From: an uncultured Verrucomicrobiae bacterium
Lineage (GTDB): Bacteria; Verrucomicrobiota; Verrucomicrobiia; Chthoniobacterales; JAFAMB01
Direction: 5' to 3'
DNA length: 64,000 bases
Assembly: GCA_963813025.1 (NCBI GenBank)
Contig: CAWEXO010000008.1
Location: forward strand, 256,001 to 320,000
Shown here: positions 1 through 16,282 of the stretch, piece after piece
How positions within the stretch are numbered: position 1 is the first letter of the stretch
Layout: every line of letters begins with the position of its first letter
Notes under the pieces: model-generated
Databases searched by the model: none
Seen by the model: only the letters and a program-made list of their open reading frames with translations
Told to the model about the DNA's origin: nothing
Translations under genes and position numbers: made by a program

Positions 1-631
1 CCACATGATCGATGTCCCTGCCCATCGGACCGACAGTGTCGAGATGCCTGGGTTCGATCGGGAACACGCCTTTGAGGGAGACAAGTCCAAAGGTGGTTTT
101 CAAACCGACGACGCCGCAGCAAGCGGCGGGAACGCGGACGGAGCCTGCCGTATCGGTTCCAAAGGCGACGTTCGCCAAGCCGCTTTGGACGGCCACCGCG
201 GAACCGCTGGATGAGCCTCCGGGGATAAGCTTGCGCCTCCTGCTCATACGATTCCTTGGCGTGCGGAAGTATTCGTTTATTCCGGAAGGGGCAACCGCAA
301 ATTCGCTGAGGTTGGTTTTCCCCACGATTTGCACATTTCGCTCTCGCGAAATTGCCATGCAGGCCGCATCCCTTAAGGCTGGGGGGTTGTTCTTGGAGAC
401 ATATTCCGAACCGGCGGTAGTGACGACACCTTTCATGTCGATCAGATCCTTCACCGCCAGGCGCAGCTGTTTACCTTCCTTAGGACGCGGCCAGTAAGCA
501 ATAAACGCATGATTTCGGGGGCCGTGCGCCGGATGGCTCAACGGAATCGCGCAGCCGCCTAGAAAGACGAACAGCAAAAGCGAGGGCGCCAAAACAAGGT
601 TGAGACACGATCTTGATGCCATTTTCTTCAT
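1..631 (-). CDS. Amidase-signature family protein, predicted lipoprotein (3' end runs off the window)
   Basis: Manual minus-strand translation, absent from the ORF track: MKKMASRSCLNLVLAPSLLLFVFLGGC (lipobox) ... LAVKDLID ... GKTNLSEFA ... PGGSSSGSAVAV ... GTDTAGSVRVPA. The Lys and both Ser motifs of the amidase triad are present. Confidence 0.9.
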   Translation of the reverse strand, partial: MKKMASRSCLNLVLAPSLLLFVFLGGCAIPLSHPAHGPRNHAFIAYWPRPKEGKQLRLAVKDLIDMKGVVTTAGSEYVSKNNPPALRDAACMAISRERNVQIVGKTNLSEFAVAPSGINEYFRTPRNRMSRRRKLIPGGSSSGSAVAVQSGLANVAFGTDTAGSVRVPAACCGVVGLKTTFGLVSLKGVFPIEPRHLDTVGPMGRDIDHV

Positions 632-696
632 TAAATCTTGTCGGCGTGAGACGCGACCTCGCTCGATCGTGTCCAAACCTTATTTTGGCGCCCTCG

Positions 697-2691
697 CTAG
701 CATGACGCATTCTCAAGAGTCGTTCCGTTACTGGTCCAAGCAGGCACGTCCGCTAATTCCTGGCGGATGAACAGATGATGCCAGAGTTGAGTTGCCACGA
801 CCGCGACTAAACCCATTTCCACCGACAAGCGCTGCAGAGAACCCATCCGCATTTCGCGAAAAGCCCGCCGCCAAAAATGCACCGCCGCGACGTCAAAATA
901 TCCGGTGCGCTGCAACGAGTCCTCGCTCAAAAGCTGAGCGACAAACGGCGGCTCAGGTTGGATATGAAAACTGTCCAGGGGAGCGCGGAAAATGACTTTT
1001 CGCCGACGATATACCGATGGTGGCACCCAGCGTTCCGCTAAAAGGCGCAGCAGGTGCTTGTCCCGAAACCCTCGAAGCTTCCAACGTGGATCCACTGTAG
1101 CCAAAAAACTGAAGACTTCCTCATCGAGGAACGGATATCTCACTTCCACCGAAGAGTTCATCGCTACGCGATCCCCTTTAGCCTGGAGCAGATGCCCAGC
1201 CAGGGTGACGCGGGCCGCGACCCAGATACCTCGGTTCAGCGGGTGCCAGCGTTTGGCCCGCTCCAGCGGCATTTGCAGATCAGTCCACGGATTGGTGTTC
1301 TTCAGGACTTCTCTCATCGGCGCAGCGTAAAAGCGAAGCTTTGAGAGACCAAGCAGTCCATAAGCATCGATCCAGGCGTTGGGACCGCCGACGGATTCCT
1401 CCACGCTGCGCCGAAAGTCCTTCGGATATTGCGGCACTCGGTGCAATCGAAGATAGGCGCGGCGGAGCTGATCGCTGAGCCGCAATCCAGGAATGAGATC
1501 CAGGAAACCGAGTGCCTTGGCCGCCTTATACCACGGATAACCGACCAGCCATTCGTCAGCCCCTTCACCCGTGAGAACTACCTTCTGCCCGCAGGAATGA
1601 ACACGCTGCGCCAATAGCAGCAAAGCAGCGCAGGAGGTGTCGACGACAGGCGCCTCTGCCGCGTGGATCAGTTGAGGATAGGTGTTCAGCGCGTCATCGG
1701 CGCGGAATTTCTGGACGATTGGAGGCTTCGTGCCGATGTGTCGAGCCACGAGGTTGGCCGCGTCAAGCTCGTCGAGCTCGGGCGCCTCAACGCGGACCGT
1801 GTAAGTATTAATCGCCGGACCCTTGAGATGACAGGCGAGGGCTGTGATGATGCTCGAGTCGACACCACCTGATAAATAGGAACCTACTGGCACATCGGCC
1901 CGGAGACGCTTCCCGACCGCCTGTAGCATCAGCTGCTCGAAACGATCCACCAGAGCGCGCGGGTTCGCGCCAGGGTCTTCGTCGCCGCGGTCCGGAAAAT
2001 CCATTTCCCAATACGCATGTTCACTGACGACCGACGGAGTACCGGCATCGTTCCCCGGAACTATCTGCAAGTAACGCCCCGGAGGCAGCAGCTGCACGCC
2101 TTCGAAGCATGTCGTCGGAGCGGGCAGTGCAGAAAACGTAAAAATATGATCAATGCCGCGCAGATCGGGTCGCGCCGAGACCATGCCGGAAGCAAGCAGG
2201 CCCTTGATTTCAGACGCGAAGAGGAGCCACTCCCCTTGACGAGTCCAATAAAGCGGACAGATACCGAAACGATCGCGCCCGAGCACTAAACGCCGGCGGC
2301 GCTCATCCCACAACGCCAGGGCGAACTGGCCGCGGAGGCGCTCAAACATGGCTTCCTGGCACTCTTCCCAGAGATGCGGGACAATTTCGGTATCGCAATG
2401 CGTGACCAACCGGTGTCCGCGCTCTTCCAGGGCCGCCCTTTGCTCAGGATAATCAAAGAACTCGCCGTTAAATACTACGAATATGCTGCGGTCTTCATTC
2501 GTAACGGGCTGCTGGCCATCCGCCAAGCCCACGATACTGAGGCGTCGAGACCCCAGAGCCAGGCCGGGACGTTGAAAGTAGCCCTCCTCATCAGGACCAC
2601 GGTGAAATATCGCCTGCGCCATCCGTTGGATAATGCCATCCGCGATGGAGCGGTGTCCGGACAGATCCACAATGCCTGCAATACCACACAT
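697..2691 (-). CDS. asnB: Asparagine synthase (glutamine-hydrolysing)-like amidotransferase
   Basis: N-terminal MCGIAG nucleophile Cys, HRGPD, FNGE, RDRFG, LSGGVDSS, TGEGADE, EVRYPFLD. Confidence 0.93.
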   Translation of the reverse strand: MCGIAGIVDLSGHRSIADGIIQRMAQAIFHRGPDEEGYFQRPGLALGSRRLSIVGLADGQQPVTNEDRSIFVVFNGEFFDYPEQRAALEERGHRLVTHCDTEIVPHLWEECQEAMFERLRGQFALALWDERRRRLVLGRDRFGICPLYWTRQGEWLLFASEIKGLLASGMVSARPDLRGIDHIFTFSALPAPTTCFEGVQLLPPGRYLQIVPGNDAGTPSVVSEHAYWEMDFPDRGDEDPGANPRALVDRFEQLMLQAVGKRLRADVPVGSYLSGGVDSSIITALACHLKGPAINTYTVRVEAPELDELDAANLVARHIGTKPPIVQKFRADDALNTYPQLIHAAEAPVVDTSCAALLLLAQRVHSCGQKVVLTGEGADEWLVGYPWYKAAKALGFLDLIPGLRLSDQLRRAYLRLHRVPQYPKDFRRSVEESVGGPNAWIDAYGLLGLSKLRFYAAPMREVLKNTNPWTDLQMPLERAKRWHPLNRGIWVAARVTLAGHLLQAKGDRVAMNSSVEVRYPFLDEEVFSFLATVDPRWKLRGFRDKHLLRLLAERWVPPSVYRRRKVIFRAPLDSFHIQPEPPFVAQLLSEDSLQRTGYFDVAAVHFWRRAFREMRMGSLQRLSVEMGLVAVVATQLWHHLFIRQELADVPAWTSNGTTLENASC

Positions 2692-2884
2692 GCCAGTCAG
2701 CTTTAGTCCATGGCAGGCCGGTCAAACAATCGCTTTTTTTTGCCTGGTTCCATTCAATTGCACCGGACCGGAACGAGGCCCGAGAAATGAGAACTCCAAA
2801 AAAAGACCGATTTTGTTGGCGAAAACCGTAATGTCGTGGTCACTATCCGCACTGTTTTGCACGCTTCAGCCACTCAGGACAACA

Positions 2885-2920
2885 TTGACTTGTCCCACGC
2901 GAAATTTGTACCCATATAAT
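2885..2920 (+). promoter_or_regulatory. Possible sigma70-type promoter of the PKS operon in the divergent intergenic region
   Basis: Perfect TATAAT at 2915-2920; TTGTCC at 2890-2895 (19-nt spacer) or TTGACT at 2885-2890 (spacer too long). Confidence 0.35.
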
Positions 2921-2954
2921 CCTCCGCTCGCGTCACGCGACGCTAACCCCTTCT

Positions 2955-5900
2955 ATGCCCAAAGATCGTATCGCAATCATCGGAATTGGCTGCCGTTTCC
3001 CCGGCGGGGTGAATGACCCAGAGTCATTCTGGAAACTGCTCGTAGAGGGACGCGAGGCCGTGGGTGATGTGCCGCCTGACCGGTGGAACATCGAACGATT
3101 TTTCGATGCGGAGCCGGATCTGCCGGGAAAATCGATTGCTCGACGTGGCGGATTTTTGGAGGACATCGATCAGTTCGACCCGCAGTTTTTCGGAATCTCG
3201 CCGCGGGAAGCGCCCTACGTAGATCCACAGCACCGATTGCTGCTGGAGACAGCTTGGGAAGCGATCGAGGACGCCGGCGTGGTCCTCGATCTTGAGCGCG
3301 GGACCGACCTGGCCGTGTTTGTCGGAATTTCGCACAACGAATATCAGGGAATTCAGAGTACCCCGTTTGATCATTCCGGCATCGGTCCGCACTCGCCCAC
3401 TGGCTGCGCACACAGTATTGCGGCCAACCGCATCTCCTATTGCCTCAATCTGCGCGGCGCGAGCGTCGCGATGGATACTGCCTGTTCGTCCGCGCTGACG
3501 GCAGTGCATGCGGCATGCGAACACATTCGGGGGGGCCGAGGCGATGCGGCGCTGGCCGGCGGAGTCACAGTGATGATTACGCCCGGAGGATTCATCGGCT
3601 TTTCTCAAGCCTCGATGCTGTCTCCGGAGGGTCGATGCAAGGCGTTCGATGCTTCGGCCGATGGTTTCGTTCGTGGCGAAGGCGCTGGCATGGTGCTCCT
3701 CAAGCGGCTATCACAGGCTTTAGCGGACGGGGACCCCATCCACGGAGTGATTATTGGCACCGCTCTCAACCAGGACGGCCGCACCAATGGAATGTCGCTC
3801 CCCAGCGCCCGAGCGCAGGCGTCGCTGGTGCGCGATGCATGCGCAGACGCCGGAGTTTCTCCATCCGAAATCGGATTTGTCGAAGCTCACGGCACCGGGA
3901 CAGCGGTGGGAGATCCGATCGAGGCCCACGCGCTTTCCGAGGCACTTTGCCAAGATCGTTCGCCCGAAGCGCCGCTACTCGTCGGCTCGGTGAAGACGAA
4001 CCTCGGCCACCTCGAAACGGCCGCAGGGCTCGCGGGTCTGCTCAAGGCGCTGCTGGCGTTAAAGCACAGGTGTATTCCGGCCAGCTTGCACTTCGAAACA
4101 CCCAACCCGAACATCGATTTCGTCGCTCTGAAACTCCGGGTGTCTACATCTCTGGAGCCCTTTCCAGAGACGGATGGTCCGCGCCTGGCGGGCGTCAATT
4201 CTTTCGGCTTCGGGGGTGCCAATGCGCATGTCGTTCTCATGGAACCGCCATCGCGTCCACAGCACGAACACTTGGAAGCCCACACAGAGCGCGCTTGGCC
4301 GTTGGTGCTCTCTGCTCGATCGGACGAATCCCTGCGTTCTTCGGCGATGCGCCTTGCTGCCTGGGCGGATGAGCGATCAAAAACGAACGGCAGCTCGCCC
4401 GTTCTGCCGGATCTGGCTTATACGTTAGGCGCCAGACGGAACCATCATCCGTATCGGCTCACCCTGGTCGCCCAGTCACTCGCGGAGGCGGTCCACGAAC
4501 TCACGAGCTTCGCAATTGCCCAACAAGCTTCCAAAACGCGGATGGCCTTCGCTCCTCGTCCAGCAAGCCCGCCGCGCGTCGCATTCGTGCTGAATGGACA
4601 GGGTCCGCAATGGTGGGGAATGGGTCGCGAACTGATGCAGCACGAGCCGCTGTTCCGGCAAACTATAGAGCGCTGTGATGCCGCGATGCGCCCTTACGCG
4701 CGATTTTCACTGGCCGAAGAGCTTGGCCGCACCGAGCAAGACTCGCAACTGCATCGCACGGAAATTGCCCAGCCGGCAATTTTCGCGATGCAGGTTGGGC
4801 TGGCCGAACTATGGAAATCCTGGGGTGTTCAGCCGGCAGCAGTCGTTGGCCACAGCGTTGGTGAGGTGGCAGCAGCGTTCATCGCGGGAGTGCTTGGTCT
4901 GGACGAGGCGGCCAGGGTGATCGTGATGCGGGCACGATTCATGAACGGTTGCGCGCAAGGCGAGGGAACGATGCTGGCGGTCGGCCTGGACGAGACTGCC
5001 GCACGGGCGCTCATTTCGCGGCATGACCGCGCCGTAACGATCGCGGCGTTTAACGGACCTCGCACGCTCACCTTAGCTGGATCCCGACTTTCACTGGAAT
5101 CAATCGCCGCCGAGCTCGAATGCGAGGGGGTTTTCGTGCGGTTTGTTCGAGTAGACCATCCCTTTCATCATCCTCTAATGCGGCCCGCTTCCGAGACCTT
5201 GGAAGAAGGATTGGCCGATCTGACGCCTCAGGCAGAAACCATTCCGTTCTTTAGCACCGTCACCGGCCGGCAGTGCCCGGGAACAGCATGCGTCGCCGCT
5301 CACTGGGGGCGAGGTGTGCGGCAGCCAGTCCAGTTCGCGTCTGCCATCAATGCGTTGATCGATTCGGGCGTCGACGTATGGCTGGAAATCGGCGCGCAGC
5401 CCGCACTCGTCCACTCGATTCAGGAATGCCTTCTTGCGCGTGGCGCCAAAGCGCCGGTGCTGGCTTCGATTCGCCGGGAACGCGAGCATGAGTCCCTGCT
5501 CGAGACTGCGATGGACCTGCACCGCTGTTGCGTCGCATTGGATTTTGCAAAGATGGTGCCACCTCGGCGGCTGCTCTCACTGCCGACTTATGCTTGGGAC
5601 AAGAGCCGCTGGTGGCATGAGTCCAGCGACTGGCTCGAAGCCCGCTTAGGATCAGGGGGCCGCGGACTGCTCGATGTGCGGTTGCCGCAGGCCAGGCCAA
5701 CCTGGATAGCGCGGCTGGATGGGCGCCACATGGTCTTCCTAAAGGACCACAAAGTCGAGAATCTAGTCGTGTTTCCAGCAGCAGCCTTCGTCGAAATGGT
5801 ACTCGAAGCCGGAGTGCAATTATTCAACGAACAGCCTTTCGTCGTTGAAGACTTTGAAATTCGCAAACCGCTCATCCTGCCGGATCCAGTTTCAGGGGTT

Positions 5901-8900
5901 CACCTCGAGTTGTCCTACGACCCGAATGAGCGCACGTTTTCGGTCCACAGCAAGTTGCACGAGGGCGCAACGTGGTCGCTTCACGTGGTCGGCTCAATGC
6001 GTGGCGACCGGACCGAGACGGGCTTCGGGTCGTCAACCTGGGATTACGAAAAGCAAATCGCTTTCCAACCGGTAGAAACGGAGGCTTTCTACCGTCACCT
6101 CAGCGAAATGGGACTTTGCTACGGAGATGAGTTCCGGCCCATCCGAGAGCTCTCAGCCGCGAATGGCCAGTCCGCCGGTCGAGTCTCTTTGTCCGAGACA
6201 ATCACCGGCCGCGCGAGTGGTTATTCACTTCATCCCGTTCTCCTTGACGGGTCACTGCAAATCTTCTCGGCAGCGGCTGCGACGGTCGAGGATCGCGGGG
6301 GCCGCCTGAAACTGCCCGTCCGCTTGGCCAAAATTCTGTTTCTCCGGTGCCCGGGAGCCTCCAGCCTGGTGCACGCCAGCGTGCAACAGTGCAATACCGA
6401 GTACGTTGAAGGCAGACTTGAATTGTATGATGGGGCGGGAAAGCCTTGTGTGCTCGTGGATGGTTTTCGTGCGATCAGCATAGCGGGATCCCATCGAGGA
6501 GGCATGGCGGGAGCAAGCCGTAACGTACTCTACCACCTGGCGTGGGAACGAACGCCTGTCGCTCGGCGCTCGTCTTCTCCGGAGCCGGTACCATTGGATC
6601 GGATACGACAAGCGGCACAGAGTGCGTTGGACGAGGTGATCGCCATGCGAGGCCGAACCGAGCTTCAGCATGCGCTGGCGGCTGGGGAGGATCTCGCGGC
6701 TGCGCAACTCGCCCGCGGTTTGCGGGAAATGGCAGCGTTGACCGGATCGGGCAGCGAGTTCACGGCAGATGCTCTCCGAGTGGCGGAACCAATGCGACCC
6801 ATATTCGAGCGGCTCATCGCTCGCATCGCGAAGCGCGGCTGGCTCGAAAAAGACGGTGACAGTTATCGGCCGACAGCCTCTTTTGCGAGCGCCGCGGACT
6901 CCGCCCAAGCGATGCTGCGCGCATATATCTCGAGTTATCCCGGACATTTGTCCGAAGGCCTGCTCTGCGCCGCAAATTGTGCCGAGCTCGGTCCTATCCT
7001 GCGCGGCGAGAAGGATGCTGTGCAGGTATTATTCGCCGGGACTTCGGCCGAGTTATTGGACCAGTTCTATGGCGAGGGCATTTACACAAGCCCGTGGCTG
7101 GCGGCGATCGCCGCAGCCGTGCAGGAAGCTGCGCGTCACCTGCCGAAAGGCCGCGGACTGCGAATCCTTGAAGTCGGCGCCGGCACCGGAGGATTGACGG
7201 CTCACGTTCTGCCGCTCATCGATCACGAGTTACATTCGTACACCTTCAGTGATGTCTCTGCCGCATTTTTCAACGGCGCTATGCAGAAGCTGGCTGGATT
7301 CCCCGGTGTGGAATACAAAATTTTTGATCTCGAGAAGCCGGGCGTTGTGCAGGGCTTCGAGGCTGCCGCATTCGATTTAATCATCGGCACCAATGTATTG
7401 CATGCGGTGAGCAACGTGCGCCTGACGCTAAGGCATATTCACGAATTGCTCGCACCGGGCGGGACCTTAGTATTCATGGATCTTGCTAATCCACAACTGT
7501 GGACGGAAGCGGTGTTCGGTCTCACGACGGGCTGGTGGCGGTTTACCGATCGGGATTTGCGTCCGTTTCATCCGTTACTGGAACGCTCCCAATGGGAGGC
7601 CGTTCTCCGAGAGACAGGATTCGAGGAAACCGCTTCTTTGCCCGGTCTGCTTAGTGCGGAAGGTGAGGGTCAGATCGGTCTCCTCGCGCGCAAGTCCTGG
7701 CACAGCTCCGGTGCCGCCGCGTTTGCCTCCGGGGAGACAGTTCAGAAGGTTCCAGCGGAGAAGTCGTGGCTCATTTTCGCGGACTCCACTGGTCTAGGCG
7801 ATCAACTGGCTTTCGAACTGCGCGCGGCGGGCGTCAGCGCCCGTATTGCGCGGCCGGGTAATCATTTTGCGCAGGATGGGACCGACGCATTCTTCCTGCG
7901 TGCGGAGGCGCTCGAGGATTGGAAGCAGCTCCTTCAGAAATGCGCGGACGACGCTCCTCCGGAACGTGTTGTTTACCTGTGGAGTTTGGACTTGCCGCGA
8001 CAAGGCGCTGACGCGTTGATGGGCACCGATTCGTTGCTCCATCTCGTCCAGGTACTCGATGAGATCGACCGCTCGAAAAAATTGCGTATCGACCTGGTGA
8101 CGCGTGGCGCGCAACCGGCGGACGGAGCAATCAATGCGAGCGGGGTGGCGCAAGCAGCAGTCATTGGATTGCTACGGGTCATCCTGAATGAGTATCCCAA
8201 CTTCTCTGGACGCGGAATCGACCTGCCTCCCGAACCCTCGCCGGCTGATCTTTCCTTGCTTTGGAGTGAACTGCTAGCTGACGATTCGGAGCGTGAAACA
8301 TCATTCCGCGGCGAAGCCCGATACGTTCAGCGCCTCGCTCGCGGTCGATCCTCCCACTTGGAATCCCTCGATCCCGCAGTGCCACTGCGACTCGAGTCTC
8401 GCGAACGCGGACATCTCGACACGCTGGGGTTCAAAGCTTTCGGCCTTCCAGCCTGCGAGCCCGGCGAAGTGCTGATCCAAGTGAAAGCTGCCGGAATGAA
8501 TTTCCGCGACGTGCTGAAGGCGCTCGCGCTCTATCCTGGTGAGGCGCCGGATGCACGTATCTTCGGCGATGAGGTGGCCGGCATCGTTCAGGCCGTCGGC
8601 CGAGATGTTGATCATGTAGCACCGGGGGACAGGGTGTTCGGCCTGGCCGTTTTCGGGCTCGCTACCCATGCACTTGCAAGAGGGGGCGACGTACGCCGCA
8701 TTCCCGGCCGGACTATCGTTCGAACAGGCGGCCACCTTGCCGGTTGTTTTCATGACAGCCTGGCACGCGCTGCAGAATGTCGCGCGGATGCAGAAGGGTG
8801 AGCGTATCCTCGTCCATGCGGGCGCCGGCGGCGTTGGAATGGCGGCAATCCAGATCGCGCATCATCTTGGAGCGGAGGTCATCGCGACAGCCGGCAGCGT

Positions 8901-10650
8901 GACCAAACGCTCCCTGCTGGAGACGCTGGGCGTGAAGCACGTGATTGACTCGCGCCGCGCTGATTTTACGGATGCCGTGATGGAATTAACCGGTAGGCGC
9001 GGCGTAGACGTAGTTCTCAATGCGCTCGCCGCAGAAGCGATTCCGATGGGGCTTTCCTGTCTCGCGGAATTCGGCCGCTTCATCGAAATCGGCAAACGCG
9101 ACATCTATCAGAATTCCCGGATCCCTCTCTGGCCGCTACGTCGTAACGCATCGCTTCACGTCGTTGCTATGGATGCTGTCTTTTCCGGCGATGAGGCCCT
9201 AACCCGACAGATGCTGGAGGAAATATCTCGAGCTCGTCGAACGAGGCGCCTTCTGTCCGCTCCCGTTCCGCTCGTTTCCTGCGTGCCGCGTTGACGCGGC
9301 GTTCCGCCTTATGGCGCAGGGCAAACACATCGGGAAAGTCGTCGTCACATTTCCCGAAGCGTTTCTTCCTCGCCGCGGAGAAGCACTGGCCCCGTCACTC
9401 GAAATTGACCCGGAGGGCTGCTACTTGATCACTGGGGCTTTCGGCGGCTTCGGGAGAGTGCTGGCGCAATGGCTGGTCGAGTCCGGTGCTCGCCATCTTG
9501 TGCTCACTAGCCGCGGGGGTGCGAGCTGCGCCAGATGCGCAGACATTCGTGGAAATCCTGCGCAATCGCGGCATCGATGTGAGAGCGGTGCAGGCGGATA
9601 TTGGCTCACCTGAAGACGTGGCGCGGCTGGTAGCGGACATTCGGTCAGCCGGTCGCCGACTGCGGGGGCTGTTCCACCTGGCGATGGTGATCGACGATGC
9701 GCCGCTTGTTTCACTCACCCGCGAGCGAATGCGAAGCGTACTGGCCCCGAAGGCGTATGGTGCATGGTTACTCCACGAGGCCACACGCGACCTCGAACTG
9801 GACTGCTTCGTTATGTTCTCGTCGGTGTCGAGCATCTTTGGCAATCCGGCGCAAGGCAACTATGCTGCCGCCAACGCGTTCCTGGACTCGCTGGCTCATC
9901 ACCGCCGCGGCTTGAGTCTCCCCGCTCTTACGATCAACTGGGGGGTCCTGGGTGGTGAAGGTTATGTCGCCCGCAACGAGCGCGTCGCCGAATTCCTCGC
10001 GCGACAAGGAACTAGTGAACTCTCGCCGCGCGAAGTGATGGGGTTAATGGAATCATCCCTCAAGGCAGGCACTACGCAGGTGATGGCGATCCGCGTCGAT
10101 TGGACCAAGTGGCGGCAGTTTTTCCGCGGCATGCAGGAGAAGCCCTTGTTGCAAACGTATTTTTGCCGCTGTCGAAGGCCAGGAGACGGCTGGCGCGAAC
10201 AATGATTATCGTCTCAAGATCGAATCGGCAGCGCCGGAAGAATTGGAAGACATCATCGGCCAAGCGGTGCGTGATGCCGTCGGCTCGGTGCTGCGCGTGA
10301 AACCTGAGACGCTGCGCGACGATCAGCCGCTCACCGACCTGGGACTGGATTCGCTCATGGGCGTCGAAATCGAAAACTCGCTTGAGACATCGCTCGGCGT
10401 GGCGCTGGCGCCAGCCAGCTTGACCCGGGCTCGAACGATCGGTCAGATCGTTTCCTTGATCGCAGAGTACATGGGCGCAAAAAGGACCGGAGGAAGAAAC
10501 GCGACAAACGCTGCAACCGCGACAGCTCCGATGCCCGCCTCCGCTGGAGAGGTAGACTTGGAAGCGCTTTCCGATGAGGAGATCGCCGGGTTGCTTGGCA
10601 ATGAAGCGGCCTCAGAGAGCGCGCCTGACTCCCGGAGCGCGGCGCGGTGA
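2955..10650 (+). CDS. Type I highly reducing PKS, KS-AT-DH-cMT-ER-KR-ACP, split by about 4 single-base frameshifts (~8706, ~9228, ~9525, ~10155)
   Basis: KS DTACSS/EAHGTGT/GHLE; AT GQGPQW, GHSVG, HPFH; DH HKVENLVVFP and LLDGSLQ; cMT LEVGAGTGG and NVLH; ER HAGAGGVG; KR TGAFGGFG, VIDD, NYAAAN; ACP LGLDSL. ORFs 2955-8801, 8668-9294, 9311-9613, 9486-10205 and 10243-10650 join colinearly. Confidence 0.92.
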
Positions 10651-12019
10651 GTGGAGTCCCGGATGTCCGCAGATAAACGCGCCGCGTTTAAGCAGTGGCT
10701 GGAAAGTGGAAAAGCGCTTCTTCAACCTTTGACCTTTCCGCAACGGGAATTATGGGAGACATCGCCGGTGGCCGTCACGGACGTGGCGAACCATATCTGC
10801 TGCCTCATTCAGGTCAGGGGCGTCATTACGCCACGGGCGTGCGAGGCTGCGCTTCGGCGAGTCGTGGAGCGGCAGGAGGTGTTGCGACTCTCCTTCCTGC
10901 CTGGCAAAGACCGGCCAGTACAAATGATTCGTCAGAGCAGTGACGCCAATTTCCGCTTTCGCGAGCTTTCATCCGTGAAGGCGCGCTACGAGCCGGTCGA
11001 AGCGCTCGCGACAGAGATTTTTCGGGAGCCATTCGATCTCGTGCGAGGACCACTTTACCGAACTGAGATGCTCAGGCGAAGCGCCGACTGATCATGTGCT
11101 GGTCTGTAGCGATTCATCATGCCATTGCCGATGGCTGGTCGCTGGGTGTTTTTGTCCAGGATCTGTGCGTTGCTTATGTGCAAGGGATCGTCCGTCCGCA
11201 CGAGAGCCTTCCGCCCTTGCCTCTCACCTATACGGCTTGGGGTGCAGCCGAACGCGGGTTCTGGCAGCCATCGGAGCTAGAGCGCCGCGCCGGTTTCTGG
11301 AAATCCAAACTCGCTGGAAGAAAGCGTCTCTGGAATGCTTTGGAAAAACCAGGGACCGCCACGGGTGCGCCTGAGCGGTATGTCTCTCATCTTCCGGCCG
11401 ACCTGGCCGACTCGGCGCGGGAAGTGGCTCGCACGACGAGCGCCACGCTCTTTAGCACATTGCTGGCCGCCTTTCAGGTCACGCTTTCTTTCTGGACAGG
11501 CGAACAGGACATCCTGGTCGGTACCCCCGTCGCGAATCGGACAAAGCAGGCGGTGCGGGAAACAATGGGCTATTTCGCCGATATTGTGCCTCTCCGCGGT
11601 CAAGTGGATGTCGGATCGCCCATTCTCCGATCAGCCTCCGGGCGGTGCAGCAAGCGACGGTAGATTGTTTCGCGAACGCTATGCCATTTGCTGAACTTGT
11701 TTCCGCGCTCGGGGACCGGCCGGCTCGGGGGTATAATCCCGTTTTTGAAGTCCGTTTCGCGCTGCAAAACTATCCCGTTCCTGACGTAGCGCTGCACGGA
11801 TTGTCCGCGCAGCTCAGGATGTGCTCGACCGGTACTGCTCGCTTCCATCTTGGATGCGAAATCACGGTAGTGCCGGACGGGCTGGAGATCGTCTGGCTTT
11901 TCCGGACTGTTCCCTCTAGCGGAAATCGAAAACCTGGCTACCTGTTCCAGGGTGTGTTGGCAGCCGCTTGTCGCTCACCGGAAAGTCGGATATGCGCCCT
12001 AAGGCGCGAAATGCGATGA
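10651..12019 (+). CDS. Stand-alone condensation (C) domain protein with frameshifts at ~11088-11105 and ~11610-11640
   Basis: PLTFPQRELW, RQEVLRLSF, PFDLVRGPLYR, catalytic HHAIADG, DILVGTPVANR, MPFAELV; no A or T domain follows. Confidence 0.88.
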
Positions 12020-12972
12020 ATACGACACCATCAACCCAAGCCGTTCTCGAACCGGAGCAACCTCACTGGGTGAGCCGCGCAGCCTTCCCGGTCCTGGTCT
12101 CCATTTTTTTTCTCAATCAAGCGGCCTTGGGTGCCGCCGTGTACCTCAGATCTATCTGGCTTGCGGCCCCCTTAATGTTAACCGCTAGCCATCTTATGCA
12201 CGGAATTTTGATCGGTTTCCATGAGGCGTCTCATGGCCTGCTTCGAAAGAACCGGCGGTTGAACGAAATCGACGGCGTTATCATCGGAGTCATGAGCCTA
12301 ATGAGCTTCAGCCTTTATCGCGCGGCGCATCAACTGCATCACGCACATCTAGCCACTCAACGGGACGAAGAGCTCTGGCCCTTTGTCATTCCCGGAACAC
12401 CCCGCTGGATTCGAGTCCTCTCCGCCATTCTCGAACTTTGTCTCGGCCTGTTTTACACGCCATTTTTATTCATACGCACATTTCTCCGCGCTGGTTCGCC
12501 TATTCGGAACAAAAAACTGCGGCGACGAGTTTGGGCAGAGTTTGCCCTAACTGTCGGCGTATGGTTTTGCATTTTAGGGGCGGTGACCTCGACGGGTGCA
12601 TGGAAATATTTTTTGTGGATGTATCTGGCACCTGCCTATCTGGCCGCGAATATGCAGAGTTGGCGCAAATACATCGAGCACGTCGGATTGACCGGGTCCA
12701 CGGTGAATAGCTCGACTCGGAGCATTGTGGCAAACGGCCCCCTGGGCAGGCTCGTCGCGTTCACTCTGCTCCATGAGCCATATCATGGCGTGCACCATCG
12801 ACATTCCGGACTGCCGCACGCGGAATTACCCCAGTTCGCCGCGGAACTCGCGCCGAAGAATCCGGGGGAGGTAGCGCCGTTTCCGAGCTACTGGAATGCT
12901 TTGATGCACCTTTTGCGCAGCTTGGCCGATCCCCGTGCGGGAGCGCAGTGGCTTGCAGCAACGCCGCCTTGA
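12016..12972 (+). CDS. Membrane fatty acid desaturase family protein
   Basis: His boxes HEASH, HQLHH, HGVHH; TM segments; ATG overlaps the upstream stop (ATGA). Confidence 0.88.
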   Translation: MNTTPSTQAVLEPEQPHWVSRAAFPVLVSIFFLNQAALGAAVYLRSIWLAAPLMLTASHLMHGILIGFHEASHGLLRKNRRLNEIDGVIIGVMSLMSFSLYRAAHQLHHAHLATQRDEELWPFVIPGTPRWIRVLSAILELCLGLFYTPFLFIRTFLRAGSPIRNKKLRRRVWAEFALTVGVWFCILGAVTSTGAWKYFLWMYLAPAYLAANMQSWRKYIEHVGLTGSTVNSSTRSIVANGPLGRLVAFTLLHEPYHGVHHRHSGLPHAELPQFAAELAPKNPGEVAPFPSYWNALMHLLRSLADPRAGAQWLAATPP

Positions 12973-13100
12973 ACAAGCGCTCAATCCTGAGTTCCGCGCG
13001 CCGGCGCGAAAACGCGACCCTCCGATTTGGCGACTCAAAACGAATTATTATTGGCTCCTTGTCGTCTATCAGGGGGCAATCGGTACGATCCTACGAACAA

Positions 13101-13916
13101 TTGAAAATTAACGAGAGTAGAAAAGAAAATCGCCAGACTCCTGCGCCTTGGCAGCTTTCCGGAGCGTCTTCAGCATCATGCGGAGAGCCATTTGCGCTGG
13201 AGGAAGAGGCGGCTAGCCCTGCGGAAGATGTATTCGAGGTTCTGGCCCTTAGAAAACACTTCGATGATGGCCAAGTACAGGCTCTACGAGGTGTGGATTT
13301 GCGGGTGACTCAGGGTGAATTCGTTGCCATTACCGGCCCGAGCGGCTGTGGAAAAACCACTCTGCTTCAAATGCTCGGCGCGCTGAACCGGCCTACTGCG
13401 GGCACCCTGCTCTATCGCGGAAACTCCATCCCTGATCTGCCTGATCCGTCCGTCTATCGCGCCCAGGAGATCGGATTTATTTTCCAGTCATTTCACCTTC
13501 TGCCAACGTTCACCGCACTGGAGAACGTGCAAATTCCGATGTTTGAAAGCGAACTGCCGATTTCGGAGCGGCGAGCTCGAGGGATCGCTTTGCTGAAATC
13601 GGTTGGGTTGGAGCATCGTCTCCATCATTTCCCCGCCAAGTTGTCTGGCGGAGAAAGACAGCGTGTCGGGATCGCTCGCAGCCTGGCTAATAGCCCTTCT
13701 GTCCTGCTCGCGGATGAGCCAACCGGTAGTCTGGACAGCGAGAACGCGCACCTTGTTCTCGACCTGATCGTTCGGGTACACCAGGAGCAGAACATGACTC
13801 TGGTGCTGGTGACACACGACGTGAGTATCGCCCAACGAGCATCCCGAACAATTCAGATGAAGGACGGGCACGTTGTGTCAGATCGTCAAACGACCCTCAG
13901 CGGAAAATATATATGA
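13101..13916 (+). CDS. ABC transporter ATP-binding protein, LolD/MacB type (start uncertain)
   Basis: GPSGCGKT, LSGGERQR, LLADEPTG, VTHD. Confidence 0.92.
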   Translation: MKINESRKENRQTPAPWQLSGASSASCGEPFALEEEAASPAEDVFEVLALRKHFDDGQVQALRGVDLRVTQGEFVAITGPSGCGKTTLLQMLGALNRPTAGTLLYRGNSIPDLPDPSVYRAQEIGFIFQSFHLLPTFTALENVQIPMFESELPISERRARGIALLKSVGLEHRLHHFPAKLSGGERQRVGIARSLANSPSVLLADEPTGSLDSENAHLVLDLIVRVHQEQNMTLVLVTHDVSIAQRASRTIQMKDGHVVSDRQTTLSGKYI

Positions 13917-15028
13917 GCTTCTTTACAGTGGTGGTGCGTGGGCTGATACGTCGTCCGATGCGAACTGGGCTAACGCTTCTGGGCATTTCCATAGGGATCG
14001 CGGCCGTCGTGGCACTAGTCGGTATCGCGCGGGGATTTGATAAGAGCTGGGCGACTGGAATGAAGGCTCGCGGCACCGATGTGGTTGTCAGCGACATGAG
14101 CAGCTCGCTGATCCCGAAGCCGTTTAATATGTCCGTGCGTGACCGTATCGTTCACCTCCCCCATGTGGCGGATACGTGTGCGATTTTGGTCGATTTGATG
14201 AGCGTGGAAAACGTCGAGATGATGATGGTATCTGCGCGAGAGTGGGACGGATTCGCCTGGAAAAACCTTCGGTTAGTTTCCGGGCGGATGCCGCGCGATC
14301 CCGCAGAGCGAACGGTCGTCCTCGGCCGCACTGCGGCCGATGTGCTGAAGAAAAAAGTCGGCGATCCGATCCAGATCGACACTGCCGAATTGACTGTCGT
14401 CGGGATCGTTGATGGCAATGCCTGGGTAGAGAACGGCTCAATCATACTCTCGCTGCCACTTTTTCAGGAAATCACGGGGAACCAGGGCAAGATCAACGTG
14501 ATTGACGTCCGCGTCACACCCTCGACCACACCCGCGGAGGTAGAACATCTCTGTGCGCAGATCAACCAGCTTGTCCCCGAAGGTCGCGCTATGCTGGCCG
14601 GCGAGAACATCAACCACAGCGAGGCATCGCGCATTGTACAGGCCATGAGCTGGGGCACTTCTTTGCTGGCAGTGCTCGTCGGTGTGTTAGGCGTGATGAA
14701 CACCATGCTGATGAACGTTTTTGAGCGCACTCAGGAAATTTGCATCTTGCTCGCACTGGGCTGGAAACGTGCGCGAATCGTTCGCATGGTCTTGTGGGAA
14801 TCGGCTTTGCTCGGCTTCTTCGGCGGCGTTTCCGGCGTGTTGATCGGCTCGGTTGGCGTGAAGGTTTTGGGAGCGGCGCCTGCGATCCGCGGACTCCTCG
14901 AGCCGGACATCAGTATCAGACTTATTGCGACATCAGTGGCGATCGCCGTTGCGGTAGGAGTAGTCAGCGGTCTTTACCCCGCATGGCGCAGTTCGCGGCT
15001 GACGCCTAGCCGAGCTTTGCAGGCTTGA
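13913..15028 (+). CDS. ABC permease, FtsX/MacB/LolE type
   Basis: RTGLTLLGISIGIAAVV, large periplasmic loop, ERTQEICILLALG, YPAWRSSRLTP; ATGA coupling to the ATPase. Confidence 0.9.
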   Translation: MSFFTVVVRGLIRRPMRTGLTLLGISIGIAAVVALVGIARGFDKSWATGMKARGTDVVVSDMSSSLIPKPFNMSVRDRIVHLPHVADTCAILVDLMSVENVEMMMVSAREWDGFAWKNLRLVSGRMPRDPAERTVVLGRTAADVLKKKVGDPIQIDTAELTVVGIVDGNAWVENGSIILSLPLFQEITGNQGKINVIDVRVTPSTTPAEVEHLCAQINQLVPEGRAMLAGENINHSEASRIVQAMSWGTSLLAVLVGVLGVMNTMLMNVFERTQEICILLALGWKRARIVRMVLWESALLGFFGGVSGVLIGSVGVKVLGAAPAIRGLLEPDISIRLIATSVAIAVAVGVVSGLYPAWRSSRLTPSRALQA

Positions 15029-15062
15029 GCGGTCCGAACGAACCATGCAATCGCGTCAACCG

Positions 15063-15858
15063 ATGAAGTTGCGCCTTGCCGGCACCGTCCTTAGTCTCGC
15101 GTTGTCGGTTCAGCGCTGGCGCCGCCAATAGCGAACCGTCCGCCAAAGATCTCGCCGCAAGCCTGGCCGCCCGGCAGGAGGGCACAGCATACGTGCGCTT
15201 GCGTCTGGAGACGAAACAGCCGGGCGGCGCGACAAAGACGATGCTCCAACTGCAGCTCAAGGAGCGCCACACGAAAACAGCTGGCGATGTCGTTTACCAG
15301 GTCCTTTGGCCTAAAGAGCGAAAAGGAGAAGCTGTTCTTTTACACAAAGCAGCGAGTCAGCCTCCGACCGGATCGATTTTCACTCCTCCGGACAAGCTGC
15401 GCTCTCTGAACCCCTCGGAGATGAAGGATAGCTTGTTCGGCAGCGACCTCTCTTACCTGGATGTTATCGAAGACTTCTTCACCTGGGACAACCAGGCAAT
15501 CGTCGGCACCGAGGTTCTGAACGGAGTGAACTGCGTCATTCTCGAGTCGAAGCCGAGCAAAGCTGAATCTTCCGTTTACGGCAGAGTGCGCAGCTGGATA
15601 GACCCTAAGCGGCTCGTGCCAGTCCGCATCGAAAAATACCTGCCCTCGGGCGAACTCGCGCGGCGCATCGAGACGGTTCGAGTGGCTACGGATGATACCG
15701 GTCATCCCATCCCCGCCGATCTCACGGTGCGCGTTCCGCGGGAAGATTCGGTGACCGAAGTGGATGGGTCGCGGATTAGACACGATGTGACCTTTTCCGA
15801 TCGCGAATTCACGCCAGAAGGCCTGAAAGAACTCTCGGCACCGAAAAGCGCACCGTAA
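15063..15858 (+). CDS. LolA-like outer membrane lipoprotein-sorting protein (apparent 1-bp frameshift in the signal peptide, ~15108)
   Basis: ATG 15063 gives MKLRLAGTVLSLALSV, which joins SAGAANSEP; motifs DSLFGSDLSYLD, CVILESKP, YGRVRSWID, FTPEGL. Confidence 0.75.
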
Positions 15859-15984
15859 GGAAAGCGGCGGGAGCGGAGGGAGCGGGTTCGGCGGAGGGAG
15901 GTAGCTGAAGAGTTGAGGAGTTCACCGTTTTGCGCTACCTCCCTCCGCTGAACCCGCTCCCTGCGCTCCCGCCGCTTTCCTTAC
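15855..15984. repeat. Long GC-rich palindrome (REP/MITE-like copy 1); may also terminate convergent transcripts
   Basis: 15855-15905 is the reverse complement of 15934-15984 with 2 mismatches over 51 bp; 28-nt loop. Confidence 0.9.
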
Positions 15985-16282
15985 CGCTTCCTCCACATAC
16001 GACTTCAGTATGAGCGCGTTATTATGTTCAGTGTCGTGCGCACTGTAGAGGAGCGTCAGGTTGCCGGGCCGGGCCGCATCGACCAGCGGTTTCCAGGCAG
16101 CCGGGTTCTCGGTTAACTCGGCTCGATACCGCCGTTGGAATTCCTTCCATTTGGCAGGATCGTGGTTGAACCAGCGGCGCAGATCGCTGCTTGGGGCGAC
16201 ATCCTTGCGCCAGGCCTGCATGCGCAGCGCTTCCTTCTTCATCCCGCGCGGGCGGATCATAAACTCGTTTGATCTGGATCAT
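15922..16282 (-). pseudogene. DUF488/YeaO family gene with internal deletion and frameshift
   Basis: MIQIKRVYDPP jumps frame to PRGMKKEAL..KDVAPSSDLRRWFNHDP..LTLLYSAHDTEHNNA; the usual DGxRxLVDRLW segment is missing; the 3' end runs into the palindrome. Confidence 0.75.

Follow-up and report, generated by a model that had tools for sequence, protein, structure and literature searches.

An apparently exchangeable AsnB–amidase pair beside a conserved polyketide synthase and exporter cluster of Chthoniobacterales

Introduction

What an AsnB-family glutamine amidotransferase and a lipoprotein amidase do beside a highly reducing polyketide synthase (PKS) is the question raised by the left end of a 64,000-nucleotide stretch of DNA (hereafter the window; positions 256,001 to 320,000 of contig CAWEXO010000008.1, assembly GCA_963813025.1) from an uncultured Verrucomicrobiae bacterium, whose genome is called G000 below. 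An earlier note, made from the sequence alone, had described eight genes there and had taken the two enzymes for fixed parts of a diderm analogue of the mycobacterial Mas/PapA/MmpL system, giving an envelope lipid or signal its amide or ester head group. Each of the eight genes is present and belongs to the family claimed, as judged by Pfam on the window open reading frames (ORFs). The new result is that AsnB and the amidase are an accessory pair outside the core of the cluster, and that in most carriers lacking AsnB they are replaced by gene X, which encodes a protein with a methyltransferase fold, and an esterase-type lipoprotein alpha/beta-hydrolase. The cluster itself is real, conserved and apparently undescribed. 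The eight-gene membership stood, except that a ninth gene, for a TPR protein, comes after the amidase gene just beyond the left window edge. The elements of the cluster are the following.

G000:C8:254420-255187, outside the window (left), minus strand: ninth gene, RMD1-3-like TPR protein (TPR PF21033), with a signal-peptide-like N-terminus and a structural model matching 7CC7
1..631, minus strand: 5' part of the gene for the amidase-signature lipoprotein (PF01425), with an LGGC lipobox and the Lys, GGSSSGS and GTDTAGS motifs in the sequence
697..2691, minus strand: AsnB-family glutamine amidotransferase, 664 aa (PF00733 plus GATase; TIGR01536), accessory module A
2692..2954, no strand: divergent intergenic region between asnB and the PKS gene, 263 bp, with the same divergent layout in most relatives
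2955..10650, plus strand: single-module highly reducing PKS, KS-AT-DH-cMT-ER-KR-ACP (Pfam; frame map against G007)
10552..10596, plus strand: conserved acidic helix at the C-terminus, following the ACP, VDL.ALS.EEI..LL, discernible in nearly all of 81 PKS C-termini
10663..12019, plus strand: free-standing condensation (C) domain of nonribosomal peptide synthetase (NRPS) type, about 450 aa (PF00668), with HHxxxDG intact and a basic N-terminal helix, frame-shifted here
12016..12972, plus strand: membrane di-iron desaturase/hydroxylase with three His boxes (PF00487)
13182..13916, plus strand: LolD/MacB-like ABC ATPase, start uncertain (PF00005)
13913..15028, plus strand: MacB_PCD plus FtsX permease (PF12704, PF02687)
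15063..15858, plus strand: LolA-like periplasmic carrier (PF17131; three-frame translation)

A Conserved Core with AsnB and Amidase outside It

An ortholog of the C domain was identified in 112 of 400 sampled genomes of Chthoniobacterales, that is, in about a quarter of those taken from this order of soil and freshwater bacteria, and across these genomes the cluster is kept at 45–90% identity. Within the family the C ortholog is found in 20 of 31 genomes, counting G000 and one partial match. A phylum-wide sample of 400 Verrucomicrobiota genomes gave three clear C matches, plus G000 and one NRPS match at 31%; the C domain of the cluster thus occurs only rarely in Verrucomicrobiota outside Chthoniobacterales. 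The records of related loci bear titles of Chthoniobacterales and of other Verrucomicrobiota. A C-domain search of 50% representatives was dominated by multi-module NRPSs and uninformative on homologs outside the phylum, and in a tblastn search of plasmids all 938 records stayed below 60%, with only NRPS C domains of about 30% identity among the 10 records listed.

The association of genes in AsnB loci is not due to chance: in 80 such loci, each viewed with no more than 10 kb of flank, KS and TPR were each present in 72, the amidase in 65, C in 56 and the desaturase in 52. Co-occurrence in relatives, on which the earlier note had made its reading depend, is therefore observed. Moreover, the PKS, C, desaturase, ABC and permease genes are contiguous in 17 of 20 further, more distant loci; one more is partly out of view, and in the remaining two the block is split, with pieces elsewhere in the same genome.

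AsnB is not bound to this block. Among the 400 genomes of the order, 90 have both C and AsnB, 22 have C only, 10 AsnB only and 278 neither, and near-complete genomes such as G515 and G494 keep PKS and C without AsnB. The amidase goes with AsnB, as an ortholog (E<=1e-70) was found in all 58 AsnB-positive genomes tested (of 100), in 4 of the 22 AsnB-negative carriers, and in 1 of the 80 genomes tested (of 278) with neither C nor AsnB. An AsnB match of 39% identity in G717 was excluded as a paralog before counting.

AsnB passed TIGR01536 with 406 bits (cut-off 267) and combines an N-terminal Cys glutaminase with an ATP PP-loop synthetase; among 100 ortholog ORFs, the MCGI start is present in 98 and SGGxDSS in 97. 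Its best PDB match is the hydroxyamidotransferase 7YLZ (1e-50), with Escherichia coli AsnB after it (3e-38). The amidase scores 209 bits with PF01425, has a lipoprotein-type signal, and shows K24, S103 and S127 invariant in 65 sequences; against the GatA model TIGR00132 it reaches 185 bits, below the cut-off of 481, and ClbL is among its matches.

Amidase genes are duplicated in tandem in G007 and G008 (L014:12131-14881 and L026:12088-14903), and extra unlinked copies occur in several other carriers. One record titled Akkermansia muciniphila MAG (metagenome-assembled genome), possibly misbinned or mislabelled, holds asnB, TPR and amidase genes at 77/64/60% identity (L049:1679-5785). Loci of the AsnB type are also present in Prosthecobacter records.

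A Second Pair in Carriers without AsnB

Two neighbors recur in the AsnB-negative loci compared: gene X (about 365 aa) and the gene for the lipoprotein alpha/beta-hydrolase (PF12697, PF07819). Gene X is present in 16 of the 22 AsnB-negative carriers, in 6 of the 58 AsnB-positive genomes (the 58 include G000, which lacks X), and in none of the 80 non-carriers. A hydrolase clade delimited at E<1e-165 shows a similar pattern, with 17 of 22 AsnB-negative versus 2 of 58 AsnB-positive genomes. The hydrolase gene adjoins cluster genes in G478, G515, G528, G604, G670, G673, G712, G717 and G736, and its product has GHSMGG in 25 of 25 ORFs and a lipobox-like signal in 10 of 10 distinct ones. All six carriers in which both AsnB and X are missing come from broken assemblies, three of them without even KS-AT and one matching only from residue 216. 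On a tree of the C domain, the X-only state requires at least four changes.

The product of gene X has no Pfam or NCBIfam match, and PDB sequence searches with the X alignment and with the alpha/beta-hydrolase returned nothing significant. The structural model of X (pLDDT 85.8) has a class I S-adenosylmethionine (SAM) methyltransferase fold with the glycine-rich motif, the match to 3OCJ having Z 19.0 and rmsd 3.2 over 248 aligned residues, and those to AprA MT2 and CurJ CMT Z of about 16; C-, O- and carboxyl methyltransferases all lie at Z 13–16. The cis C-methyltransferase (cMT) of the PKS is intact in the X lineages, so X does not replace it. A homolog of gene X is encoded by the cultured Chthoniobacter flavus Ellin428 (CfE428DRAFT_5844).

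Other genes were seen at some of the loci. Seven of 11 inspected gaps between X and the hydrolase hold the gene for a patatin protein about 1290 aa long, in which two or three patatin stretches are seen (L142:7407-11276, L145:8617-12474, L220:4074-7919). Five genomes of genus g22 have, just upstream of the PKS, genes for a GH1 lipoprotein, a secreted protein of no assigned family and PLD (L105:13802-17311, L117:2606-6146); the GH1 lipoprotein and PLD were considered as an AsnB replacement and dropped, since their place beside the PKS was confined to this genus, and there to 5 of 7 loci.

The Polyketide Synthase and the Free Condensation Domain

In relatives, the PKS is a single ORF of about 2550–2600 aa, and most of 81 intact ORFs retain the catalytic motifs of KS, AT, DH, cMT, ER, KR and ACP; some loci in this set overlap, and the AT blanks that were re-checked proved to be motif variants or a wrongly anchored regular expression. 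The cMT domain is present and intact, and the AT motif reads (V)DHPFH, which we take to be of the malonyl type. There is no loading module and no TE. The claim that the cluster has neither A nor TE domain holds by Pfam in the 14 window ORFs, and the AMP-binding core motif occurred once in loci L014–L156, at the edge of L058. Among the PDB matches of the PKS, Mas ranks second (9D2Y, 6e-214).

The C domain is a separate ORF of about 450 aa in relatives and was fused to the PKS in none of the 81 intact PKS ORFs by a C motif scan. It keeps HHxxxDG in 83 of 83 orthologs, and its best PDB matches are the NRPS C domains of TycC (2e-40) and Txo2; PapA is absent from its 55 PDB matches, no direct comparison or fold search against PapA having been made. 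Both the acidic helix after the ACP and the basic helix at the N-terminus of C are conserved, and we presume them to be docking-domain-like, which suggests that the PKS hands its chain directly to C. The His boxes of the desaturase are conserved among 52 ortholog ORFs.

The core is not always in one piece or free of insertions. In genus g249 (L107, L134, L135) the cluster is split, TerC-C(-desaturase-ABC-permease) standing apart from PKS-LolA-like, which X and the hydrolase accompany. In G686, G737 and probably G773, a small secreted-looking Thr/Val-rich protein is encoded between desaturase and ABC (L108:16353-16898, L120:3081-3611); the L108 copy has no Pfam match.

Export and Carrier Proteins

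The ABC ATPase scores 230 bits with the LolD model TIGR02211 (cut-off 308), and the permease 59 with the LolC/E model TIGR02212 (cut-off 362). The TPR protein (model pLDDT 95.6) best matches the TPR domain of PTPIP51, 7CC7 (TM 0.83, Z 27.0, rmsd 2.5, 224 aligned residues), followed by 2PL2 (Z 21.9), TPAT 8G52 (Z 21.7) and the sterol transporter 7T1S (Z 21.0). The PTPIP51 TPR domain binds and transfers phosphatidic acid in vitro, according to an excerpt of PMC10243591, and 7T1S is BstC, part of a bacterial sterol transport system described in an excerpt of PMC10942540. The presence of a LolA-like and a lipid-carrier-like TPR protein therefore favours a hydrophobic, envelope-bound product. A TPR ortholog (E<1e-62) was found in 58 of 58 AsnB-positive and 7 of 22 AsnB-negative genomes. 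A complex prediction for amidase and TPR protein scored 0.00, which speaks neither for nor against their contact.

A Proposed Pathway and Its Alternatives

That AsnB and amidase can be replaced as a pair points to a reversible cap rather than to a permanent head group. An ATP- and glutamine-dependent amidotransferase and a SAM methyltransferase are both able to neutralise a carboxylate, hence the role of cap maker; amidase and esterase are both able to reverse such a cap and are both predicted lipoproteins, hence uncapping on the outside. In the pathway that we favour, to which we would grant a little short of an even chance, a cap is put on before export and taken off afterwards, and the cap made by module A is a primary amide. 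Directly observed are the gene content, the intact catalytic motifs, the separate PKS and C ORFs, N-termini of exported or lipoprotein type on hydrolases and carriers, and the pattern of co-occurrence; from these we infer the chemistry of every step. The PKS, presumably acting iteratively, likely builds a long, reduced, methyl-branched acyl chain, which the free C domain likely releases with a free carboxyl. The nucleophile in C would be water, giving hydrolytic release as in crocacin (excerpt of PMC5640695), or a small amino acid, giving an N-acyl amino acid as with TwmB (excerpt of PMC11153888). AsnB likely caps the released carboxyl as a primary amide inside the cell, and in relatives with X the cap is predicted to be a carboxyl methyl ester made by X. 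The desaturase may act on the chain at one of several stages. Transport of the neutral product through the envelope is likely the work of the ABC, LolA-like and TPR proteins, and beyond the inner membrane the lipoprotein amidase, or the esterase in relatives, would cleave off the cap or hand the acyl group to an acceptor in the envelope; the outer step would thus be hydrolysis or acyl transfer. Taken as a whole, this would be a new diderm-envelope route in which a polyketide acid receives one of two interchangeable, unrelated caps (AsnB amide or SAM methyl ester), travels on LolA-like and PTPIP51/BstC-like carriers, and is uncapped or transacylated without ATP by the matched lipoprotein amidase or esterase, a proposal that we regard as possible, though clearly below an even chance.

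Several observations weigh against the favoured pathway. The pairing of capping enzyme and hydrolase is not strict: the amidase occurs without an AsnB ortholog in G637 (97% complete), G712, G717 and G768; both modules occur together in six genomes and in L177, L201 and L205; and the hydrolase clade is found in only two of those six genomes. The 1e-165 threshold of this clade was set post hoc, after data inspection, and related alpha/beta-hydrolases are common (67 of 80 genomes at 1e-30). X is found at a distance from core genes in 42 of 80 metagenome loci, most of them short; the same holds for 14 of the 30 loci that reach 6 kb or more. Its top folds include PKS C-methyltransferases, the carboxyl methyltransferases LCMT1/PPM1 coming lower, at Z 14.3–14.6. 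The genomes are related, 10 of 14 X-only rows forming one clade, and the C tree is a quick, midpoint-rooted one in which many AsnB labels were taken from the locus alone. As to location and transport, the lipobox regular expression matched 51 of 72 amidases, the TPR ortholog is absent from 15 of 22 AsnB-negative genomes, and the commentary PMC10243591 describes lipid transfer by PTPIP51 as slow and as missing a mutant control.

The main rival places the mask at the other end of the chain. Acting on the ACP of the PKS itself, AsnB would make malonamoyl-ACP or X malonyl-ACP methyl ester; extension by the PKS would give an omega-capped chain, C would join the thioester end to an acceptor, and after export the lipoprotein hydrolase would free the omega-carboxyl of a dicarboxylic-type lipid. 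This explains the module swap equally well, and it fits a PKS that begins at the KS with neither loading module nor fatty acyl-AMP ligase (FAAL) as well as the nearest named folds of X, which are methyltransferases of PKSs acting on ACP; furthermore, the OxyD/ChxD amidotransferase and BioC/BioH methyl-ester strategies act on malonyl thioesters. However, glutarimide malonamoyl starter systems use a stand-alone ACP and AT beside AsnB, for which window 697-15858 offers neither an ORF nor room; a single ACP would need to act in priming as well as in extension, and genomes with two modules are harder to explain, so that we hold this rival to be unlikely. Still less probable is the permanent head group, with C passing the chain to an amine or polyol made with the help of AsnB, in a Mas/PapA-like envelope lipid for which the hydrolase would serve only turnover or remodelling. 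The intact HHxxxDG and the two carrier-like proteins would suit it, as would the TwmB C domain, which forms N-acyl amides (excerpt of PMC11153888), yet PKS and C persist without AsnB in G515 and G494, a methyltransferase could not supply the same amine, and the type of hydrolase tracks the capping enzyme.

The amide or methyl ester might, on the other hand, be the finished product, a secreted signal or antimicrobial, with the lipoprotein hydrolase in self-protection or signal quenching. Fatty-acid methyl ester and amide signals exist, the distribution within genera is patchy, and several carriers have the extra amidase copies mentioned above; nevertheless, two predicted lipid carriers better fit a membrane-bound destination, no conserved regulator or receptor was seen in the loci compared, and the amidase is found in only 1 of 80 non-producers, its near-absence there arguing against shared immunity, not against self-resistance. 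We judge this improbable, marginally more so than the permanent head group.

Relation to Known Systems

The cluster works like the mycobacterial PKS–PapA–exporter and the fungal PKS–C systems, yet fails their defining features. With Mas/Pks2, PapA, MmpL/DrrABC and LppX, which make phthiocerol dimycocerosates (PDIM) and sulfolipid, it shares a single reducing PKS module, a separate C-fold enzyme, an exporter and a periplasmic carrier, and what stands of the earlier lipid reading is a conserved, apparently undescribed set of PKS, free C, desaturase and exporter that likely yields an exported methyl-branched lipid. Membership in the Mas/PapA/MmpL type does not stand: that system has a methylmalonyl-selective AT and no cis methyltransferase, whereas here we find a cis cMT with an HPFH AT motif of malonyl type, an NRPS-type C, a MacB/FtsX-type ABC transporter below the LolD and LolCE cut-offs, a desaturase, and a swappable AsnB/amidase or methyltransferase/esterase module; neither the AMP-binding family of FAAL nor the MMPL family of MmpL/RND exporters was found by Pfam in the 14 window ORFs. 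Outer transacylases of the Ag85/Chp type would parallel the lipoprotein hydrolases.

The fungal PKS–C enzymes TwmB (wortmanamides) and LovB have the same KS-AT-DH-cMT-ER-KR-ACP set followed by C, with no A domain; the TwmB C domain makes N-acyl amides with beta-alanine or 5-aminopentanoate (excerpt of PMC11153888). Here, by contrast, C is a separate protein, and the system is bacterial, with dedicated export and a periplasmic hydrolase. The hydrolytic C-like release domain of crocacin and the free-standing C of C-1027 release or esterify a tethered chain (excerpt of PMC5640695), in modular assembly lines, whereas one PKS module with lipid carriers is present here. The PTPIP51/RMDN3 TPR domain, BstC and the TPAT T-components, reported to bind lipids or sterols, share their compact TPR fold with the protein described here, which is at most about 20% identical to them and is linked to a PKS cluster; and unlike LolCDE/LolA lipoprotein export, the MacB/FtsX-type ABC transporter here, which misses both Lol cut-offs, goes with a PF17131 LolA_like protein.

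Carboxyl groups are masked and later unmasked in BioC/BioH methyl-ester masking and in colibactin-type prodrug deacylation, and OxyD/ChxD, PieD and TsnB9 are AsnB enzymes amidating a polyketide carboxyl. The difference here is that one core appears to work with either of two unrelated mask/unmask pairs, and that the enzymes for unmasking are predicted to be lipoproteins.

Chthoniobacterales rank among the most common bacteria of soil, and the literature examined reports no polyketide product from them. A literature search, which did not extend to supplements, MIBiG, Di et al. 2024, Hai and Tang 2018 and Crits-Christoph 2018, gave no description of the cluster or its product, and excerpts of PMC8692599, PMC7298704, PMC12714770 and PMC3542564 do not describe it. 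With 112 of 400 genomes carrying the cluster, a widespread but so far unseen lipid is implied, which might serve as a biomarker; if the proposed route is true, this would be a methyl-branched lipid of a new type, diagnostic of a quarter of Chthoniobacterales. Under the module swap, amide and methyl-ester intermediates should converge on one acid, and a probable function is suggested for the unannotated methyltransferase family of X and for bacterial RMD1-like TPR proteins.

Gene Boundaries, Frame Breaks and Neighboring Sequences

Of the gene layout first reported, the sequence does show the divergent arrangement around one intergenic region of 263 bp, as well as ATGA overlaps at positions 12016 and 13913. 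The stop/start adjacency at 10650/10651 had to be given up, as it needs a GTG; the C protein of an intact relative aligns from ATG 10663, which is the more likely start. The amidase gene crosses the left window edge to G000:C8:255324, in a 450-aa frame with about 435 aa from ATG 631.

The PKS gene lies in five frame pieces in this assembly, with four shifts near 8700, 9225, 9510 and 10150, and the C gene in at least three, with shifts near 11090 and 11640 and a short compensated shift near 11900; the LolA-like protein has a signal-peptide-like start from ATG 15063 in a different frame, with a shift near 15100. Together these frames have at least eight breaks, which would be expected of a cluster decaying into pseudogenes in this genome. 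However, short-read contigs of run X1, which may be the source sample or a sister strain, have one base fewer at each of 8701, 10151, 11106 and 11615, and the two X1 contigs with listed records are 97–99% alike; each piece is 67–86% identical to an intact relative with its motifs intact, and similar breaks occur at other positions in other few-contig assemblies (L099, L100, L111). Because the X1 contigs lack the base at four sites and relatives have intact single ORFs, the breaks are probably assembly errors, and decay is very improbable. Runs X2 and X3 yielded distant fragments only.

Directly after the LolA-like stop, a long GC-rich inverted repeat (window 15860-15990) is probably a repeated REP/MITE-like element or a terminator, since run X1 contigs show loose ends there. 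Window 16500-63000 holds ordinary genes (a truncated alpha-amylase domain, a PAS histidine kinase, an AI-2E transporter, an aldehyde dehydrogenase, an enolase-family enzyme, MFS, TauE and DUF4432), none of which appeared linked to the cluster. To the left of the cluster, beside sugar ABC genes, two membrane-protein genes (L001:11179-13166) resemble by eye what we presume to be alternative complex III subunits. Two genes of the phosphopantetheinyl transferase (PPTase) family are present in G000. A separate multi-module NRPS locus (G000:C5:8059-42413) has a PPTase-family gene at G000:C5:8059 and at least four NRPS-type C domains at G000:C5:22024-42413.

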